The position numbers and the translations under genes were made by a program. The notes beneath the pieces were generated by a model, which was not told the origin of the DNA, searched no databases, and was given only the letters and a program-made list of their open reading frames with translations. From positions 1 to 10,940 of the forward strand of contig JAEOTS010000132.1 in assembly GCA_016839745.1 (NCBI GenBank): a DNA stretch of 10,940 bases. Reading direction: 5' to 3'. The stretch is from Promethearchaeota archaeon. Lineage in GTDB: Archaea; Asgardarchaeota; Lokiarchaeia; Sigyniarchaeales; SOKP01. Positions within the stretch are counted from its first letter, which is position 1. Every line of letters begins with the position of its first letter. Of the stretch, positions 2,199 through 10,940 are shown piece after piece.

Positions 2199-4076
2199 TT
2201 AGCGATTCCCTGTATCTTGCAGAAAATTTAAAACATAATGTTGAGTAATCAAATCTGAACTGATTTTTCCTAACACCTTTCCATCTTGAACAACTGGCAT
2301 TGCTGAGATTTGATATTGTTCAAATTCCCTTACAATGTCTAAAATATTAAAATCCGGAGAGGCGGTGATTACTTGTTTTGTCATAATTTTTGTGACAATT
2401 CCATCACAAAAACCTTCGGCAGAAGCTTTTGTTACATCCCAATCTGTAACGACACCAACTAATTTTTCATCTGAAATGACAGCAATTATTCCACTATTAT
2501 TATCTATCATGGATTTAGCAGCATCCTGAATTGAACTACTTGAATCTATCATGGGTATTGAAATCATTATATCCTTAGCTGTAAGTTCACTTTCTTTGGC
2601 TTTAAGCCGTTGAAGACTTATCCTTTCAGCAGCTTGAGATGGTAAAATATCTGGGTGTGTAGTTAAAATATCAATCAATTCAATCATATTATGGCGTATT
2701 ACACCCTCACGATATACCTCACCTGCTTCTAAGCGTTTTTTAGAAAGCTTTTTGAACTTAGCTGAATTATCAGTTAACCATTTTTCAACTGCTTCTTTAT
2801 TTCCAAGAATTTCCTCGGGAAATTGAAGTTCCTCTGGTGATTTAATAATATGTTCTTGAGCTGCGAAAATTACTCCGCCTGAATTAACTAAATAATCGTT
2901 AGCTATCATTACTCCCTTTTCACGATAGACAATTTGTTCCATACGTGTTCTAGCAGCTTTTCTATTTGGATCCGGAGAATAAGTATTTGCTCCTTCAATA
3001 ATTACGTTCCAATTGCCCATATGATCAACTAACATAGATGCATTATCTGACGGTCTTACACCTAAATAATTAAATATAGGTGCCGCAGGAACAAAGCAAA
3101 ATGCATTTTCGCGGAGCAGGTCATTTGCGTTCGTAGAAAACTTTGTGGGATGTTTGAATCCTTCAGATACTATACTCTTTTCGAAATATGTTTTTGTTGC
3201 TATTTTTTTATTTTCCCAAAACCTAAACAATTCTTCAGTTGGAAGACCAGATGGATTATGAAGATAACCCTCTAAGTCACTTATACCTATTACTAAAGCT
3301 TCAGGTATTCTCTCTTTTAAAATTCTAGTTGCGTGAGCGCCTACAGCACCAAATCCTTGTATGATAACCGTTAAATCTTGGTGAGCTGGAATTTCTAAAT
3401 TTTCAAATTGTGGTAGTACTCTCATACGTGGAAATATTTCCAATAATGTTTGTAACGCTATGATTACTCCTCCGGCAGCAGCTCCGAGTTCATCAATACG
3501 ATTTCCGCCCATATCTGCTGGTTTAGAAACAGCACTATCAAGACCATTTTCGATCGCAATTAATTTCATATCAGCGTCATTAGTACCAACATCTGGTCCG
3601 GGAACATAAATTTCTTTATATCTACGAATTAATTGTGCGAATCCTCTTACAATTTCTTCATGAATATTATCAGGTAAATTTCTTTTAGCTATTATTCCTG
3701 ATTTTCCACCACCATAAGGAAGATTCGCAGCAGCGTTTTTTAAAGTCATCCCCCGTGCAAGATTATAGATATCTGAAGGTTTGATATCAGGAAGGCATCT
3801 AATTCCGCCCATCGAGGGTTGTCCCATAGATAAATTATCAACAATTAAATATCCCCCGATTTCTAACTCTGATTTTTCATCCCATACACATGCTACAAGC
3901 TGAGGACCTATTTCATCGACTGTTACGTTCAATCGCTGTAAGAGATGCACATCTAGACTACTAAATTCCAAATAACATTTACCATCTTCTTTTTTAAGAC
4001 GGGTTAATAAAGTTGCTTCAGGGAGGTGAGCCTTAAGAAAAGCTTCCATTTCAATAGGTATCATGATTGATTTCAC
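2199..4076 (-). CDS. Glu/Leu/Phe/Val-family amino-acid dehydrogenase with C-terminal CBS pair; probably not glutamate-specific
   Basis: GGIR, LARGMTLK, LPYGGGK, PGPDVGT, Rossmann QGFGAVG, IEGAN, DYLVNSGGV. Residues ~498-612 form two CBS motifs (KLVGVVTDWDV; ISAMPVVQDGKVLGKIS). Alternative starts are ATG at 4064 or 4049. Confidence 0.9.
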   Translation of the reverse strand: MKSIMIPIEMEAFLKAHLPEATLLTRLKKEDGKCYLEFSSLDVHLLQRLNVTVDEIGPQLVACVWDEKSELEIGGYLIVDNLSMGQPSMGGIRCLPDIKPSDIYNLARGMTLKNAAANLPYGGGKSGIIAKRNLPDNIHEEIVRGFAQLIRRYKEIYVPGPDVGTNDADMKLIAIENGLDSAVSKPADMGGNRIDELGAAAGGVIIALQTLLEIFPRMRVLPQFENLEIPAHQDLTVIIQGFGAVGAHATRILKERIPEALVIGISDLEGYLHNPSGLPTEELFRFWENKKIATKTYFEKSIVSEGFKHPTKFSTNANDLLRENAFCFVPAAPIFNYLGVRPSDNASMLVDHMGNWNVIIEGANTYSPDPNRKAARTRMEQIVYREKGVMIANDYLVNSGGVIFAAQEHIIKSPEELQFPEEILGNKEAVEKWLTDNSAKFKKLSKKRLEAGEVYREGVIRHNMIELIDILTTHPDILPSQAAERISLQRLKAKESELTAKDIMISIPMIDSSSSIQDAAKSMIDNNSGIIAVISDEKLVGVVTDWDVTKASAEGFCDGIVTKIMTKQVITASPDFNILDIVREFEQYQISAMPVVQDGKVLGKISSDLITQHYVLNFLQDTGNR

Positions 4077-4171: not shown

Positions 4172-6025
4172 ATGAATCCCGGTGGTAAAAAGCTTTTATT
4201 AATTGGCATTGATCAGGCAATTCCTTATTTAATTAATAGGTTTCTTGAGCAGAAAGCGATTCCGAACATCGCAAACTTATGTGAAAATGGTGTATTAGCA
4301 GAAGGATACTCCTCTGCTCCTTGTGATACACCAACTAATTGGACCACCATCGCTACAGGAGCTACAACCGCATCGCATGGAGTTACAAGTTTCTATATGC
4401 ACTTACGAGATGAACCTCTTGATTTAGGGGCAAGATTAAGATCAAGAACTCAATTATCTCGATATTGTCAAGCAGAATTTATATGGGATGTTGCGGAAAG
4501 AAGGAATTTAATACCTTTTGTAATAAATTATCCTTCTGGATGGCCAGGCAGTTTTAAAAAAGGAGTTATGAGTTTGTTTACTTGGATGGTGCCTGAATCA
4601 TATCAGAGAATGATTACACCCTCAAAATCTTATAAATTCAATAAAAAATCCAAAAACGATTCCATAAGAATAATCGACGATGGGGATAATTTAAAAATAG
4701 ATATCATTATTAAAGGCAAAAATATTCTTAACCCACTTACACAAGAGGTTTATGTTTCTAGTAATATTGGTGGCAAGATATTATTAAAAGTAAATGAAGT
4801 ACAACAAATTATTAAAGAAATGGAATGGAGTAGTTGGTTTAAGGTAAATATTAATACAACAAATGGATTTTTGCCATGCCTTTATAGAATTAAGATCATC
4901 GATCTAAATGATGAAACTATTACATTAAAACGTTCAGCTGTTTATAATACAAAAGGTTGGACAAATCCTGAGTCTTTCGGAGAGAAATTAATTAAGAATG
5001 TGTTTGAGTATGATTTTCCTCAAGAACATGACGTTGAATTTATGATTAATGAAGAGATAAGTTCTTATTTGATTTCGGCACGAAATGAAAGTTTGATGCT
5101 CGCTGAAGCGATTAAATATGCAAAACGATACTTAAATTGGGAGGTATGTTATTTTCATTATCATCCTTTAGATAGTGTTAATCATGATTCCCTTGCTTAT
5201 CTGCATAAGGAATCACCACTTTATACCGAAGAAAAAGCTAAGAAGACTTTTAACAATGTAGAAACAGCGTATAAAATAGTCGATGAGTTAGTCGGAAACC
5301 TAATAAATTCTTGTGTGGGAAAAGATACGATTGTTGTTTTTATTTCGGATCATGGTGCAGTACCAATTTGGAAGATAGTTAACATCCCGTTATATTTTAT
5401 GAAATCTGGCTTGACAAAATACAATTGGAATGAATTTGAGAAAAAATATGTTATAGATTGGAACAAGTCGACTGCCTTTCCCTATATGGAACCTCCATTT
5501 GTTTGGGTTAACCTTAAGGGAAGAGACTTACATGGAATTGTAAAGAGCTCAGAATATGAAGAAATAAGGGATTTAATAATTGAAACTCTATATAATTTAA
5601 AGGATCCTAATACTAACGAACGAATTATCGAGTTAGCTTTAAGAAAAGAAGAAGCAGGTTATCTAGGACTGAATGGAGAGAGAATTGGAGATGTTGTATA
5701 TTTTCTTAAACCTCCTTATGGAATATTCGATGGGAACTTAGGAAAGCTCGATGCAAGTAGTATGACTAAAAGCGAGTATAATAGACCAGAAGTGGATATG
5801 GCTCGATCTTTTTTCGGAGCTCATGCATATTATCTCCCCTCTACTAAATTTGGCAATTATTCAGTTTCTATACCTTTTATAATCAGTGGTCCAGGAATTA
5901 AAAAAGGTATCAAATTAGATGATATCGTTAATTTGGTTGATGTTGCTCCTACTCTTTCATATTTGCTGAATATCCCTAATCCTAAAAATTCAGAAGGTAG
6001 AATTTTATATGAAATGATGGAATAG
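4172..6025 (+). CDS. Alkaline phosphatase superfamily / nucleotide pyrophosphatase-phosphodiesterase-like protein
   Basis: Metal Asp in LLLIGIDQ, nucleophile region SSAPCDTPTNWTTIATG..HG, DSVNH, FISDHG, late His (GAHA) and C-terminal LVDVAPTL...EGR. No obvious signal peptide. Confidence 0.85.
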   Translation: MNPGGKKLLLIGIDQAIPYLINRFLEQKAIPNIANLCENGVLAEGYSSAPCDTPTNWTTIATGATTASHGVTSFYMHLRDEPLDLGARLRSRTQLSRYCQAEFIWDVAERRNLIPFVINYPSGWPGSFKKGVMSLFTWMVPESYQRMITPSKSYKFNKKSKNDSIRIIDDGDNLKIDIIIKGKNILNPLTQEVYVSSNIGGKILLKVNEVQQIIKEMEWSSWFKVNINTTNGFLPCLYRIKIIDLNDETITLKRSAVYNTKGWTNPESFGEKLIKNVFEYDFPQEHDVEFMINEEISSYLISARNESLMLAEAIKYAKRYLNWEVCYFHYHPLDSVNHDSLAYLHKESPLYTEEKAKKTFNNVETAYKIVDELVGNLINSCVGKDTIVVFISDHGAVPIWKIVNIPLYFMKSGLTKYNWNEFEKKYVIDWNKSTAFPYMEPPFVWVNLKGRDLHGIVKSSEYEEIRDLIIETLYNLKDPNTNERIIELALRKEEAGYLGLNGERIGDVVYFLKPPYGIFDGNLGKLDASSMTKSEYNRPEVDMARSFFGAHAYYLPSTKFGNYSVSIPFIISGPGIKKGIKLDDIVNLVDVAPTLSYLLNIPNPKNSEGRILYEMME

Positions 6026-6090
6026 TTGAATCATTTTCTTTAAATTTTAGTTATGATTTTACTATTAAAGCAATTTATAGTGAATTTAAA

Positions 6091-6381
6091 ATGGTAACTC
6101 TCATAGCTACACTTCAAGTTAAACCAGGAAAAATGGAAGAGGCAATAGAAGTTCTTAAAGAAATGGCTGCTGAGGTCAAATCTTCAGAATCAGGAACTTT
6201 AGAATATATTCCTCATACTGTAAAGGGAGAAGGACTAGAGAATACAATAATTTTTTATGAGAAATATGAAAGTGAAGAAGCACTTAAATTTCATAGTAAA
6301 AATCTAAGAAAAAAAGCAGTCAATTTAGCTCCTTTGTTAGCTCTTGGAAGAGATATTAAGACATGTGTTGAAATTAAATAA
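6091..6381 (+). CDS. Antibiotic biosynthesis monooxygenase (ABM) family / putative quinol monooxygenase
   Basis: 96 aa with ABM pattern VKPGK.EE, E.GTLEY and IIFYEKYESEEALKFH; preceded by SD-like AGTGA. Confidence 0.8.
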   Translation: MVTLIATLQVKPGKMEEAIEVLKEMAAEVKSSESGTLEYIPHTVKGEGLENTIIFYEKYESEEALKFHSKNLRKKAVNLAPLLALGRDIKTCVEIK

Positions 6382-6384
6382 CAC

Positions 6385-6393
6385 TTTTTTTTT
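6385..6393 (+). terminator. Oligo-T tract, candidate archaeal intrinsic terminator
   Basis: T9 run starting 4 nt after the ABM stop, at the junction with the convergent DHPS-like gene. Confidence 0.45.
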
Positions 6394-7966
6394 ATTCATC
6401 TTGAATATACGGTTTTCCGGTAAGCAAACAGAATTCTGCTTTGTTTAATTCACGTCCCAGATAATTTATATGTTGAAAGTTTTTAGTTAAATTCAATTCA
6501 AGAACTTTTTTGCTAAGTGTCTCAGCGTTATTCCCAATTAAAGTTTTGAGAAGAATACCTTGATTAGAATAAAATAATACATAAATTTCTTTAGTGTAGT
6601 AGTTAACATAAAATTTAAAATAACCATTTTTATCGGGTATATATTCCGGAGCGTAATCTTTTACGGAAATTGCATCAATTCTATCAAATTCTGGAATAGT
6701 TTGACTAGTTTTACCTTTGGCTTTGAAGACATTAATTCCATGATTTATAGGAGGAGTTCTTTTATACTTTGCAACATAATTAAGTTTTACACTTTCTTTG
6801 AGTTCTCTTACTCCTCCCATCAATTTAGTGCTGTGTTCAACCGTAAATAAAATTCCCATGTCTAATTCAACTGCAATACTTGCTAATAATCCATTTATTC
6901 CCACTGAATCAATATCCATTAGTTCTACTACATTAGATATACCAAAAAATAAAGGCAATTTCAGATTCTTGTTTATCTCATTTGTAACTTGTTTCTTATA
7001 GAGAAAATATGCTTCTAGCGAGTTACAAATCCCAGGTGTAATGGGTGTTTCTAGTAGGGGATCAGCAATTAACTTTTTAAAACCGCTTTGTCGTAGTTCT
7101 TGAGTTAATTTAAATATATTCTTAACTCTTATTTCAGGTTCTTTCGGAAAATAAGCTTCCTTGATGTTCGTAGGCAATATAACGATAGGGATATCACGAG
7201 GGAGATTAAGGAAATCTTTGTAATTTCCAAGGTCTATACTTAAGATTAAATCAACACCCTCATCTACTGCTGCTACAATTTCGCTTTTTTCCATTGAGTC
7301 AATACTGATTAAGACATTAAAATTATTCTGGATAAGTTGAACAATTCCTTTTATCCTATCTGGATAGGGTTTGTTTGCTACGCATCCAATATCAATAACA
7401 TCTGCACCCGATTCTATATAATGATTTACTTTTCTAACGATAGCATCATTACTTTTTTCTGGGCAATTGACAATTTCAGCAATAATTGGGGGTGGAAGAT
7501 TATTCCCGATCATTATACTAGAAGTTTGTTCGTTGATGAAAAAAGTATGGAATCCCAGATTTTCTTTTGCGATTTCAATTTGTTTTTTAGCGATTTCATC
7601 ATAGACTTGCTCGCCAGAACTCTCAAATACTTTATTTGCCGGTATTTTATTTGATAATTTAACGGTATTAATATGTTTTAAAATCCAAGGAAGATCAGAT
7701 GCAAATTCAGGTCCTTTCTTTATTTCAATTGAATTTTCTTCTTCTAATTTGGTAGTATCCCATTGGATGAAACCTGGAAGTAGTATTAGATCAAAACTGT
7801 TAAGATCTATATCTTTTAGTACATTAATAACTATACTTTCAGTTAAAAAAGCAGATATTGTTATGGGCGCTTTAAGAATTTCAATTTTCTGTTTTGTAAT
7901 TGATGAAGTGATATCCTTAATTATAGGATAACTACTCTTGCCCGTTATTATTAAAATTCTCTTAAT
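6392..7966 (-). CDS. Dihydropteroate synthase-related protein (MJ0107/Orf20 type), methanopterin biosynthesis; 524 aa if started at ATT 7966
   Basis: Pterin-binding barrel motifs IIAEI, SGADVIDIG, ISIDS, IADPLL and FFGISNVVELMDIDS, plus a DUF4346-like tail HINYLGRELNKAE..GKPYIQD. Manual translation shows no stop from 7513 up to 7966, giving IKRILIITGKSSY...ISAFLT...DLILLPG...KKGPEFASDLP...IPANK, the family's N-terminal domain. Confidence 0.88.
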   Translation of the reverse strand: MKRILIITGKSSYPIIKDITSSITKQKIEILKAPITISAFLTESIVINVLKDIDLNSFDLILLPGFIQWDTTKLEEENSIEIKKGPEFASDLPWILKHINTVKLSNKIPANKVFESSGEQVYDEIAKKQIEIAKENLGFHTFFINEQTSSIMIGNNLPPPIIAEIVNCPEKSNDAIVRKVNHYIESGADVIDIGCVANKPYPDRIKGIVQLIQNNFNVLISIDSMEKSEIVAAVDEGVDLILSIDLGNYKDFLNLPRDIPIVILPTNIKEAYFPKEPEIRVKNIFKLTQELRQSGFKKLIADPLLETPITPGICNSLEAYFLYKKQVTNEINKNLKLPLFFGISNVVELMDIDSVGINGLLASIAVELDMGILFTVEHSTKLMGGVRELKESVKLNYVAKYKRTPPINHGINVFKAKGKTSQTIPEFDRIDAISVKDYAPEYIPDKNGYFKFYVNYYTKEIYVLFYSNQGILLKTLIGNNAETLSKKVLELNLTKNFQHINYLGRELNKAEFCLLTGKPYIQDE

Positions 7967-7970
7967 TTAA

Positions 7971-7977
7971 ATCACTC
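7971..7977 (-). promoter_or_regulatory. Shine-Dalgarno-like GAGTGAT upstream of the DHPS-like gene
   Basis: Minus strand reads TGAGTGATTTAAATTAAGAGA. GAGTGAT resembles the archaeal GGAGGTGAT consensus and lies 4 nt before ATT. Confidence 0.5.
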
Positions 7978-9055
7978 AATAATTATGTTTATCAAATGGA
8001 ATATAGATATCATCTAGAATTGATCCTTTAGCTTCTTTAATTTTAATATTACTAATAATGGGTTCAAATTCGCCCCCTAATAAACCGTTTGCTATAAAAG
8101 CCGCACCTTGAGCAGCATGCTTTGATATGTTACCGTATGACTTCATTAGTTTAACAGGAAACAAATCTTCTAAACAATTGCTAATAGTTTCTTTAATATA
8201 TTGTAATTCTGACGATCTACCCGCTAGTAGTATTTCAGCAATTTTATCTTTATTTGAATAAGAGGAAGAAATTGCGTGAATTGCTTTAGTCAATTCTGAT
8301 AAATAAGCATCAAAAGCCAATTTTATCTGTGCGTCTTTTTTAGCTAATAATATGATATCTTTTAAAGTAAAATCTAAATGTCCTGAAATAAAAAAAAGTC
8401 CACCACTATAAATATCCTTTTTATTAATATTTTTAATTAGGTAAGCAAGTTCTCCATCGAGGCTCCCACAGGCTCTTAAACCCATAATGTTAGAGCCCCC
8501 TATTCCATCAATAACTTGACCATTTTCAATAGCTAAAACTGATGTAAACCCATATCCAATTTCAACCATAATAAAATTAGTACTTTTTGGATTAATTTTT
8601 AACCTTTCTACTTGGTCTCTTATCCCCGTAACGGCTGTGCATAATTTATCTGCTGTTCCCATATCAATTTTATTTACTTTGCGATACCTAGGAATTGTAA
8701 GTAGATGCTTAACGCCAGGAATAATTATACCAGGAATCTTTTCTGCTTTTATCAAGCGAAGGATTTCACCTAATCCGATTAATTTATTTTTCTCCTTTGT
8801 ATCGAATTTCAACAGGGTTAGAAATATATCTTCTTCAGTTATATCTGAAACTCTTTTCAAGGGTAATCCAAATCCGCTTGGAGCTACAATTAAATCGATA
8901 TTCTCTACCGATTTTATAATGGCTAAAGCTTTACTCGGTTCTTCTATTAATTCATTTGAAGGAATAGAAGTATCTAAGATTATTTCTTTGTTTTCTAAAC
9001 CAAAAAAATCCCAAGATTTAGAGCCAGGATCTATACCAATTACCCGATACAACAA
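7976..9055 (-). CDS. DUF1464 family protein (ASKHA fold, annotated as predicted butyrate kinase-like)
   Basis: ASKHA phosphate-1 motif VIGIDPGSKSWD, APSGFGLP, IPGVKHL.TIP.YRK.NKIDMGTADK, VEIGYGF, DGIGGS, AAQGAA. TTG start. Confidence 0.88.
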   Translation of the reverse strand: MLYRVIGIDPGSKSWDFFGLENKEIILDTSIPSNELIEEPSKALAIIKSVENIDLIVAPSGFGLPLKRVSDITEEDIFLTLLKFDTKEKNKLIGLGEILRLIKAEKIPGIIIPGVKHLLTIPRYRKVNKIDMGTADKLCTAVTGIRDQVERLKINPKSTNFIMVEIGYGFTSVLAIENGQVIDGIGGSNIMGLRACGSLDGELAYLIKNINKKDIYSGGLFFISGHLDFTLKDIILLAKKDAQIKLAFDAYLSELTKAIHAISSSYSNKDKIAEILLAGRSSELQYIKETISNCLEDLFPVKLMKSYGNISKHAAQGAAFIANGLLGGEFEPIISNIKIKEAKGSILDDIYIPFDKHNY

Positions 9056-9081
9056 AAATCAAGTTCTATTTAATTTGCTAA

Positions 9082-9089
9082 TTATAAAA
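9082..9089 (-). promoter_or_regulatory. Candidate TATA box for the DUF1464-DHPS transcript (leaderless or short leader)
   Basis: Minus strand TTTTATAA centred about 30 nt upstream of the TTG start, with no SD between them. The AT-rich background limits confidence. Confidence 0.4.
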
Positions 9090-9227
9090 GTTCAATAATT
9101 CTTTTTATTTTTGTTAATTTTTAATGCTTCTTGATCGAAGGAAAAAGATGATTATTTTATTATAAAGTTTTAAAGAACTTGGATATATTCTTACTTATAC
9201 TACTGAAAATTATTATTATCATATCTA

Positions 9228-9977
9228 ATGTCCTCTAATTTTCAAATAGATTTCACATCTATAGGCTTAAAAAAAAATTATTTATATGAAATCTTAGCTA
9301 CCACATTTTCGATAGATGGTACCCTAATGGTTCCAAATACTGCTAGTATGGGTCTCAGGTTAGTGGATAAGGAATTATTTAAAATTTGGCCTTATCCAAA
9401 TACAACCACTTATAAAAACATAGAAAACAATAAATTCCTTGTATTAAATTTTATTGATGATGTATTTCTATATGCGCTAACATCTTTAAAAGGTTATAAC
9501 TTGTCTAAAAGTGATAGAGCTTTATCAGAAAAATATTATAATTACTATACTCTTGGTGTTAAAGAGGAGTATAAAGATTTTGCTAAAAGAATTACATCTG
9601 CAGATTCTATTCAACTCCCTTATTTAAATCAAGCCTGGGCTATAATAGTCTGTATTGCAACGAATATAAATCAAATTTTAAGAAAGGACGATTTTGGTGA
9701 ATTTAAGTTAATGGAAGTAAATTTAACTGTTATATCCTACGAGAAATACAGGGAATCTTTTAAATTGTTTAATAGAGCGGAAAATTTAACTTTAGAAACT
9801 ATCGTATTAGCTACTAAATTAAATGTTGCGATAGAAAAAAAAGAAAGAGCCTTAACCGAATCAATAAAGCGAAAAATTGAAGAAAATGTAAGCAATGTAA
9901 TGAGATTTGGAAAAAATGTGAGTGCTTTAAAAGCGATTGAACATGTTACAGACTACATTAAAGGATTAGAGTCCTAG
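9228..9977 (+). CDS. DUF447 family protein (flavin-binding split-barrel fold), associated with methanopterin gene clusters
   Basis: YEILATT...PNTASMG, TTTYKNI...VLNFIDD and C-terminal helical FNRAENLTLETIVLATKL; consistent gene context. Confidence 0.82.
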   Translation: MSSNFQIDFTSIGLKKNYLYEILATTFSIDGTLMVPNTASMGLRLVDKELFKIWPYPNTTTYKNIENNKFLVLNFIDDVFLYALTSLKGYNLSKSDRALSEKYYNYYTLGVKEEYKDFAKRITSADSIQLPYLNQAWAIIVCIATNINQILRKDDFGEFKLMEVNLTVISYEKYRESFKLFNRAENLTLETIVLATKLNVAIEKKERALTESIKRKIEENVSNVMRFGKNVSALKAIEHVTDYIKGLES

Positions 9978-10369
9978 TTTTTATTTCTTATTTTTTCAAT
10001 GAACATCAAAGGGTATTTAAGTTCTTCAATCCACTCTACTTTTGCAGTTATTTCAACCGAGTTAAACTCAAGAACGACTGTCGCGGCTATTGATATGCCA
10101 GATAACTCATCATACTCAAATTCGGTGGTTTTATTACCCTGAATTTTATCCCGATTGATATTAATCTTAACGGATTTCACATATGGTTGGCAGGAGATTG
10201 ATGCTTCAATACCTTTTTCAATAGACTCTATAATTATAGGGTTCGATGAAATTGGCAAGCCACATAAAATATGATAAAGAGCTCCTAATTTTATGCCTAT
10301 TTCGAAGCATGCTCTTTCTCTATCGTTTATATCATAAGAAAAATACGCGTTTTCTTTGCCATTTGACAT
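9974..10369 (-). CDS. mptD: Archaeal dihydroneopterin aldolase
   Basis: RERACFEIGIKLGALYH, QPYV, Y.ELSG, LKYPLMFI; 131 aa; TAATG stop/start overlap with the RFAP synthase gene. Confidence 0.9.
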   Translation of the reverse strand: MSNGKENAYFSYDINDRERACFEIGIKLGALYHILCGLPISSNPIIIESIEKGIEASISCQPYVKSVKININRDKIQGNKTTEFEYDELSGISIAATVVLEFNSVEITAKVEWIEELKYPLMFIEKIRNKN

Positions 10370-10940
10370 TAATTCTCATCAACAAATTCAATTTTTGCTC
10401 CATTATTATTGGGTTTGCATAAGTAGATGTGTCCACCTATACTATTAAGACTGATCTGAACATCTTTTAAAAGTTTGTTTGCTTCCTCATCAGATTCTAC
10501 AATCCCAAATACACTAGGTCCGAATGAAGACATTCCAAAAGCTTTTACTCCATATTCTTCAAAAAAAGTGAGTGTCTTTTTTACGATTTCATGTTGTAAA
10601 GAGATTTCGATTTTTTTGAATCCTATGTTCTGTATTCTTTTTAAACCTTCACCAAAACATTCTAAATCTTTTTTAATGATTCCTGGTACAATTTTCATTA
10701 AAATTTGGTGCGAAACTTCATTGACTTCTTCTTTTGGAATTGGAGCATGACTTTGAAAGATGCTTACCTCTTCATCACCATAAGCACCCTTCTTTACATT
10801 AGGTATAACTAACACAAATCTCCAATGCTCTGGAACGGGATATCTTAAGATTGTAAGCGCAGGATTAGCTTCTTTTGATGCTGAGGAAGGTAGAAATGTT
10901 TCTTTCTCTTTTCCTTTACCAAATTCATGTCCCGCATCAA
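10369..10940 (-). CDS. mptG: Beta-ribofuranosylaminobenzene 5'-phosphate (beta-RFAP) synthase, GHMP superfamily; 5' end outside the window
   Basis: The frame stays open past the ORF-track start (10815) to the edge: DAGH....FLPSSAS...RYPVPEHWRFVLVIP. Also EE..IFQ, IQNIGFKKIE, GMSSFGPSVFG and PNNNGA. Confidence 0.9.
   Translation of the reverse strand, partial: DAGHEFGKGKEKETFLPSSASKEANPALTILRYPVPEHWRFVLVIPNVKKGAYGDEEVSIFQSHAPIPKEEVNEVSHQILMKIVPGIIKKDLECFGEGLKRIQNIGFKKIEISLQHEIVKKTLTFFEEYGVKAFGMSSFGPSVFGIVESDEEANKLLKDVQISLNSIGGHIYLCKPNNNGAKIEFVDEN

Follow-up and report, generated by a model that had tools for sequence, protein, structure and literature searches.

Several enzymes are known to be regulated by a CBS pair fused to them. 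The described systems nearest to the one reported here are MJ0100, a DUF39 enzyme of Methanocaldococcus jannaschii whose CBS pair has been solved with S-adenosylmethionine (SAM) and methylthioadenosine (MTA), and, for the catalytic part, the ELFV family, to which the hexameric glutamate dehydrogenase (GDH) and the leucine, phenylalanine and tryptophan dehydrogenases belong. We know of no natural dehydrogenase of the ELFV family for methionine or homoserine, and literature searches returned no paper describing an amino-acid dehydrogenase fused to a CBS pair. Such a fusion is encoded in the stretch of DNA analyzed here (the window: 10,940 nucleotides of contig JAEOTS010000132.1, Promethearchaeota archaeon assembly GCA_016839745.1; G+C content about 31%), which is part of contig C106 of G000, an 89%-complete Asgard (Promethearchaeota/Lokiarchaeia-type) metagenome-assembled genome with 5.8% contamination. 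An initial annotation of the window had likened the CBS pair to SAM/MTA-binding modules and proposed a SAM-gated catabolism of methionine; the observation is confirmed by the analysis below, and the interpretation is partly supported. The best explanation for the evidence as a whole, to which we assign a probability of about 45%, is that the protein is a non-glutamate dehydrogenase carrying a one-site sensor of the MJ0100 subtype for a ligand of the SAM family.

A CBS pair of the MJ0100 subtype

The dehydrogenase-CBS gene occupies positions 2199-4076 of the window on the reverse strand, as an open reading frame of 625 amino acids if a GTG start is used. An ATG four codons downstream (window position 4064), which is the start in database relatives and in the family consensus, is the likely true start and would give a protein of 621 residues, with W546 becoming W542; the GTG numbering is kept here, and under it W546 and D547 had been numbered correctly, the string TDWD being residues 544-547. 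Pfam recognizes ELFV_dehydrog_N at residues 84-174 (3555-3827), which is the substrate and dimerization domain, ELFV_dehydrog at residues 229-410 (2847-3392), which is the NAD(P)-binding domain, and two CBS motifs (PF00571, E-value 5.7e-20). Pfam and the AlphaFold model place CBS1 at residues 498-553 (2418-2585) and CBS2 at residues 560-623 (2208-2399), and in the full-length AlphaFold model a helical connector region lies at 2589-2798. The motifs first quoted for the CBS pair are all in place within residues 498-612, at 538-551 (2424-2465), 564-572 (2361-2387), 587-596 (2289-2318) and 606-609 (2250-2261).

By sequence, by family profile and by fold, the nearest solved pair is that of MJ0100, in line with the resemblance that had been proposed. 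A single-sequence search of solved structures with the 138 C-terminal residues returned MJ0100 as the best single pair (57 bits, E-value 1.4e-14), outranked by a 655-residue many-CBS protein solely through the summing of several motifs. When a profile built from 18 CBS pairs of the family was compared with the Protein Data Bank, MJ0100 reached 77.2 bits in one stretch, and the next single stretches scored 45 (MJ1225), 41 and 39 bits. The AlphaFold model of the pair, with a mean predicted local distance difference test (pLDDT) of 89.5, has the expected order of β-α-β-β-α elements, repeated twice, and a Foldseek search with it placed the MJ0100 structures with MTA and SAM (3kpb, 3kpc and 3kpd) at ranks 1, 2 and 4, with 34% identity and a root-mean-square deviation of 1.6-1.7; the margins of MJ0100 over other CBS pairs in that search are small, and more than 400 solved CBS structures match the model.

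A more specific likeness concerns the residue before the ribose-binding Asp of CBS1, which is Trp in 135 of 136 family members and in MJ0100. In 427 canonical motifs from 128 representative hits outside the family, the same position is Arg in 30%, Thr in 22%, Lys in 12% and Trp in 2.6%, and these Trp cases cluster among the nearest neighbors of the family. The eight other DUF39 CBS1 motifs inspected have Phe or Tyr there, which makes the residue aromatic in all nine, MJ0100 included. As a bulky hydrophobic residue stands where nucleotide-binding motifs usually carry a basic or hydroxyl one, a phosphate-bearing ligand would seem to be disfavored.

Wider searches qualify this picture. The CBS pair alone was searched against 1.84 billion representatives and the matches were re-ranked by best single pair, because many-CBS proteins inflate the ranking. 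The top matches are fragments or distant members of the same dehydrogenase-CBS fusion family, followed by short or stand-alone CBS pairs at 80-91 bits (most of the short ones on contigs below 2 kb), a SRAP-CBS protein (87 bits) and a truncated protein that includes part of a transporter; the score of a DUF39 fragment was 68 bits, and MJ0100, at 57 bits, would fall just under the list. Among 400 Asgard genomes the fusion is restricted to one family, and the best non-fusion matches are mostly the C-termini of frames of about 500-545 residues, which in six of the six cases checked combine HcyBio with CBS (DUF39). The DUF39-CBS protein of G000 itself (contig C147) scored 37 bits; the same genome holds a second DUF39/HcyBio homologue, on contig C85:457-1647 (a 432-residue frame), which the genome-wide scan with the CBS pair missed. 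The expectation that the top hits would be MetX or DUF39 pairs is borne out for DUF39/HcyBio, the best non-family type among the checked Asgard matches, and not fully borne out globally, where several short or stand-alone CBS pairs and the SRAP-CBS protein outscore DUF39; no MetX-CBS protein turned up in the CBS-pair searches, none of which was aimed at that architecture. As judged by sequence, DUF39 pairs are the nearest characterized type, though not the nearest sequences overall.

Unequal ligand sites and the predicted sensor

The ribose-binding motif G-h-h-T/S-x-x-D/N is present in CBS1, as G541-V-V-T544-D545-W546-D547 (2436-2456), and not in CBS2, where the corresponding segment is G603-K-I-S606-S607-D608-L609 (2250-2270). 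The AlphaFold model, which puts D547 third in the helix after the CBS1 strand and L609 at the equivalent place in CBS2, bears out the earlier remark on the missing Asp of the second site. In CBS1 the motif is canonical, and T544 and D547 show little or no variation among 136 family members or between bacteria and archaea, position 544 being Thr or Ser. Position 609 is Leu in 128 of the 136 and Leu or Ile in every member inspected; D608, invariant in the 136-member set, is His in two Chloroflexota sequences. The residues G541, W546, D547, T549 and G603 do not vary among archaeal, Desulfobacterales and Chloroflexota members, and K550, after the CBS1 motif, is variable (Lys in 69 and Ala in 44 of 136). 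Counted by hand on a single-sequence alignment, identity to MJ0100 is 21 of 33 residues over the three elements of the site with the CBS1 motif and 9 of 33 at the other, so that the likeness is concentrated in the intact site. Many accepted CBS pairs have one degenerate site. In DUF39/HcyBio proteins of a sister Asgard family (L052:422-1990 and L054:384-2003) the Asp of CBS2 is also lost, the segments reading S-A-D-M and S-E-S-M, compared with S-S-D-L here. In human cystathionine beta-synthase the SAM site is made up of the N-terminal strand and second strand of CBS1 together with the G-h-h-T-x-x-D motif of CBS2 (PMC4276868); by symmetry, the site with the CBS1 motif would here be completed by strands of CBS2.

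We propose that the C-terminal ~125 residues make up a single Bateman module that shares its subtype with the CBS pairs of MJ0100 and other DUF39 enzymes. It would have one intact adenosyl-ligand site, composed of T544, W546 and D547 of CBS1 and, as general CBS architecture predicts, strands 564-572 and 590-596 of CBS2, and a second site degenerate at L609. The intact site would take an uncharged or sulfonium adenosyl metabolite (SAM, MTA, S-adenosylhomocysteine or 5'-deoxyadenosine) rather than adenosine mono- or triphosphate (AMP, ATP). Ligand binding would close the module, as in MJ0100, and the closure would be transmitted through the long helices at 438-496 to the catalytic core, altering its activity in one direction or the other. 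Since the closest solved relative of the module binds SAM, it is a SAM-type metabolite that would probably switch the enzyme.

Catalytic core, gene partners and substrate

All NCBIfam dehydrogenase models score far below their equivalog cut-offs on this protein (the best at 91 bits against 620), and the catalytic apparatus is retained: the catalytic K125 (GGGK), the α-carboxylate-binding K113 and the glycines of the GxGxxG motif (G241-x-G243-x-x-G246) are invariant in archaeal and bacterial members. Two further positions, also invariant in the family, depart from GDH. Met89 (codon 3810-3812) aligns to the Lys that binds the side-chain carboxylate of glutamate, and A405, in a GGV..A segment, replaces the second glutamate-binding Ser; with both of these residues replaced, the core is not expected to bind glutamate. 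To judge from these residues, it is a working NAD(P)-dependent non-glutamate amino-acid dehydrogenase. Ordinary GDH-like paralogues are also encoded in G000, on contigs C23 and C2. The invariant pocket and the gene partners described below point to a neutral 4-substituted 2-aminobutanoate as the substrate, and our rough odds are 35% for methionine, 30% for homoserine and 35% for another neutral amino acid.

Identity within the family is 53-90% over Asgard archaea, Desulfobacterales and Chloroflexota; when a distant member was used to query species genomes, the fusion turned up in Desulfobacterales and Chloroflexota (Anaerolineae), at 53-76% identity to that member. At 16 bacterial loci in two phyla, the dehydrogenase-CBS gene follows, on the same strand, an orphan gene for a soluble protein of about 420 residues, with measured gaps of 4-9 nucleotides where both genes are intact (at L070 and L086 one frame is fused or broken), and in 3 of the 16, from different lineages, a bona fide PanB is encoded just upstream. 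The orphan protein has no match in Pfam, NCBIfam, solved structures or the protein atlas, and its listed homologues are all annotated as hypothetical. In Asgard archaea the orphan has another companion: at all 11 loci examined, in six genera, it is followed within 27 nucleotides by a DapA-like aldolase fused to formaldehyde-activating enzyme (Fae), an arrangement for which literature searches returned no paper. The homologue in G000 (64% identity), of 428 residues, forms with an aldolase-Fae fusion of 496 residues a two-gene operon on contig C184:11435-14229 (locus L096:6436-9233). The orphan, the aldolase-Fae fusion and the dehydrogenase-CBS gene occur in the same 6 of 13 genera. Both PanB and the combination of an aldolase with Fae transfer a one-carbon unit between a 2-oxo acid and a pterin carrier, by unrelated means.

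The distribution of homoserine dehydrogenase (PF00742) in the family gives a further hint. In the seven genera without the fusion, 21 of 25 genomes have it, and the four exceptions are 64-79% complete; in the six fusion-bearing genera only about one genome in two has it, and the genomes that lack it include some that are 100% complete. Among the 64 family genomes without a PF00742 match, 53 carry the dehydrogenase-CBS gene; the other 11 are 58-94% complete. This pattern is consistent with the dehydrogenase-CBS enzyme making homoserine dehydrogenase dispensable. Together with the orphan and with PanB or aldolase-Fae, it allows for a possible role at methionine or homoserine. The 89%-complete G000 gave no match to archaeal-type SAM synthetase (PF01941) or to MetE (PF01717), which, other isoforms not having been searched, says little.

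Taken further, these associations suggest a natural homoserine or methionine dehydrogenase, acting as a reductive aminase or deaminase of 4-hydroxy- or 4-methylthio-2-oxobutanoate under the control of a SAM-family metabolite. With the orphan and a one-carbon aldol enzyme, which in Asgard archaea would be the methanopterin-linked aldolase-Fae fusion and in bacteria the folate-linked PanB, it would make up a route not yet described that links pyruvate and a carrier-bound one-carbon unit to the homoserine/methionine node and could replace homoserine dehydrogenase. We regard this extension as speculative, with the chances clearly against it.

Alternatives, neighboring genes and known systems

Several points weigh against the one-site SAM-family sensor. 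Adenine nucleotides are the ligand of most characterized CBS pairs. There exist metagenomic CBS pairs nearer than any DUF39 pair, and a maximum-likelihood tree of 64 pairs (120 columns), in which the DUF39 clade has a support of 97 and the dehydrogenase-pair clade one of 88 on a star-like backbone, neither joins nor separates the two groups and provides no sister placement. Of the 98 family genomes with the dehydrogenase-CBS gene, 23 lack the orphan, so the partnership is not obligatory; G000 has both the gene and homoserine dehydrogenase; and the genomes behind the co-occurrence counts are related, with perhaps few evolutionary events among them. SAM regulation is still hypothetical in the DUF39 enzymes themselves (PMC12068725). 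The pair could instead be an energy or redox sensor for AMP, ADP, ATP or NAD(H), comparable to IMPDH, AMPK gamma, CBS-pyrophosphatase or AcuB, that couples amino-acid oxidation to the energy state of the cell. Most liganded CBS structures do hold adenine nucleotides, complexes of AcuB and CBSX2 with AMP, ADP or ATP are among the fold matches, and MJ1225 is the second-best single pair in the profile search; however, nucleotide-binding pairs fall about 32 bits below MJ0100 in that search, an invariant Trp stands where Arg, Lys, Thr or Ser is usual, and K550 is not conserved, which together make an energy sensor unlikely in our estimate. A module that serves oligomerization or stability only and takes no small-molecule ligand would account for the plainly degenerate second site and would suit the common tendency of CBS pairs to dimerize, but T544 (or Ser), W546 and D547 vary little or not at all over two domains of life, in contrast to the surface positions around them, and we consider this reading improbable.

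The two genes convergent with the dehydrogenase-CBS gene bear on two other alternatives. They had been described as radical-SAM genes and offered, with the reservation that the adjacency may be coincidental, as a clue to methionine metabolism; the description is literally true, and NCBIfam equivalog models identify them as CofG and CofH, of F420 synthesis. Tail-to-tail linkage with cofH is retained in genera g1, g22, g14 and g18, and it is absent from genus g12, from two of the three g23 loci and from all bacterial loci; cofH is present in all seven genera of the family that lack the fusion. As cofH does not travel with the fusion gene, we treat the adjacency as coincidental, and the clue to methionine falls away. 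The retained linkage, and the co-directional DUF1464 and dihydropteroate-synthase-like (DHPS-like) genes upstream in several genera, could be read as a sign that the enzyme acts in F420 or methanopterin biosynthesis, but the same distribution speaks against this, as does the convergent arrangement with cofH, which excludes a single transcript, and such a role is highly improbable. The remaining alternative, which is the initial annotation's reading in full, is a methionine dehydrogenase that converts methionine to 4-methylthio-2-oxobutanoate and is switched on by SAM through the CBS pair, draining excess methionine. It draws on the same evidence of CBS subtype as the SAM-family sensor that we prefer, and the Lys, Ala and Ser of the GDH pocket are replaced by Met89, Gly and A405; clostridial GDH mutated at all three positions reportedly gained activity on methionine and norleucine. 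The orphan with aldolase-Fae or PanB could, moreover, take a four-carbon keto acid to pyruvate and a one-carbon unit. Yet this is a prediction from sequence and gene context, its supporting radical-SAM adjacency has turned out to be cofG/cofH, the loss of homoserine dehydrogenase mainly from carriers of the fusion is left unexplained, and to our knowledge no natural methionine dehydrogenase has been described, which counts against it. We find it doubtful.

With cofG and cofH the window is an F420/methanopterin biosynthesis neighborhood, and its other genes belong largely to a methanopterin cluster (6392-10938). This cluster comprises a DHPS-like gene whose product has PterinBD-DUF4346 as its tail (the frame is open to 7966), DUF1464, DUF447, a gene for an archaeal dihydroneopterin aldolase and a truncated one for beta-RFAP synthase. 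Positions 4172-6381, which separate the dehydrogenase from the DHPS-like gene, hold a phosphodiesterase of the alkaline-phosphatase superfamily (617 residues) and a small ABM monooxygenase-like gene, an arrangement seen only in the window and its closest relative; in other genera the dehydrogenase comes straight after the DHPS-like gene, both on one strand. A 5'-truncated second copy of the dehydrogenase-CBS gene in G000 (contig C104:3-1712, locus L015), 93% identical and with the same cofH-cofG neighbors, probably reflects strain heterogeneity in the bin and not a paralogue. At one g23 locus (L059, G279:C147, 4251-7942) the dehydrogenase-CBS gene stands between cofG and cofH instead of after cofH. 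At the g12 loci L055 and L057 the genes ahead of it, in the same orientation, are two for FAD-binding oxidases and one CCG/Fe-S gene, which form a GlcD/GlcF-like 2-hydroxyacid oxidase set, and a CAAX-protease-like gene. A dependence of the dehydrogenase-CBS gene on F420 synthesis was also considered and is rejected on the distribution.

If the sensor binds SAM or MTA, it would bring control by a SAM-type metabolite to a class of enzymes for which no such control is known, and provide a handle on an unstudied dehydrogenase family of Asgard archaea, Desulfobacterales and Chloroflexota; if the ligand is AMP or ATP, the protein would be an ordinary energy-sensing fusion. The gene partners suggest an undescribed link, in sediment anaerobes, of one-carbon carriers and pyruvate with the homoserine/methionine node, and such a link would bear on how Asgard archaea make or break down the amino acids of that node.

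Compared with the systems described so far, the protein combines familiar parts. With MJ0100, an L-aspartate-semialdehyde sulfurtransferase, it shares the T-x-W-D ribose motif in CBS1, the C-terminal fusion of the pair to an enzyme, a first CBS2 strand identical at seven of nine residues and an 'IS..PVV' strand; MJ0100, however, has the canonical Asp in both CBS motifs and binds two ligands, whereas the dehydrogenase family has Leu at the CBS2 position, and the catalytic partner is DUF39 in the one and a dehydrogenase in the other. Human cystathionine beta-synthase, which is activated by SAM (PMC4276868), likewise carries a single C-terminal Bateman module with one usable and one unusable site on an enzyme that metabolizes amino acids, and the ribose-binding Asp and the Thr of its G-h-h-T-x-x-D motif touch the ligand. 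Its active site, in contrast, uses the motif of CBS2 with FDQ in CBS1, whereas here the intact motif is in CBS1 and FDQ is absent, and the sequence similarity is weak (E-value 0.0045 to the NCBIfam cysta_beta model). PH1780 of Pyrococcus horikoshii, an archaeal CBS protein solved with SAM (PDB, 2yzq) that responds to SAM and MTA (PMC13381585), is among the sequence and fold matches, but it is a stand-alone protein with four CBS motifs and a much weaker match, aligned over one motif only. With the hexameric GDH and the leucine, phenylalanine and tryptophan dehydrogenases the protein has in common both Pfam domains, the catalytic and α-carboxylate Lys and GxGxxG, and it differs from them in an N-terminal extension of about 60 residues, the helical connector, the fused CBS pair, and Met and Ala in place of the glutamate binders. 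The CBS pair and the MJ0100-type module are thus already known; what is new is a fused sensor on a dehydrogenase of the ELFV class.

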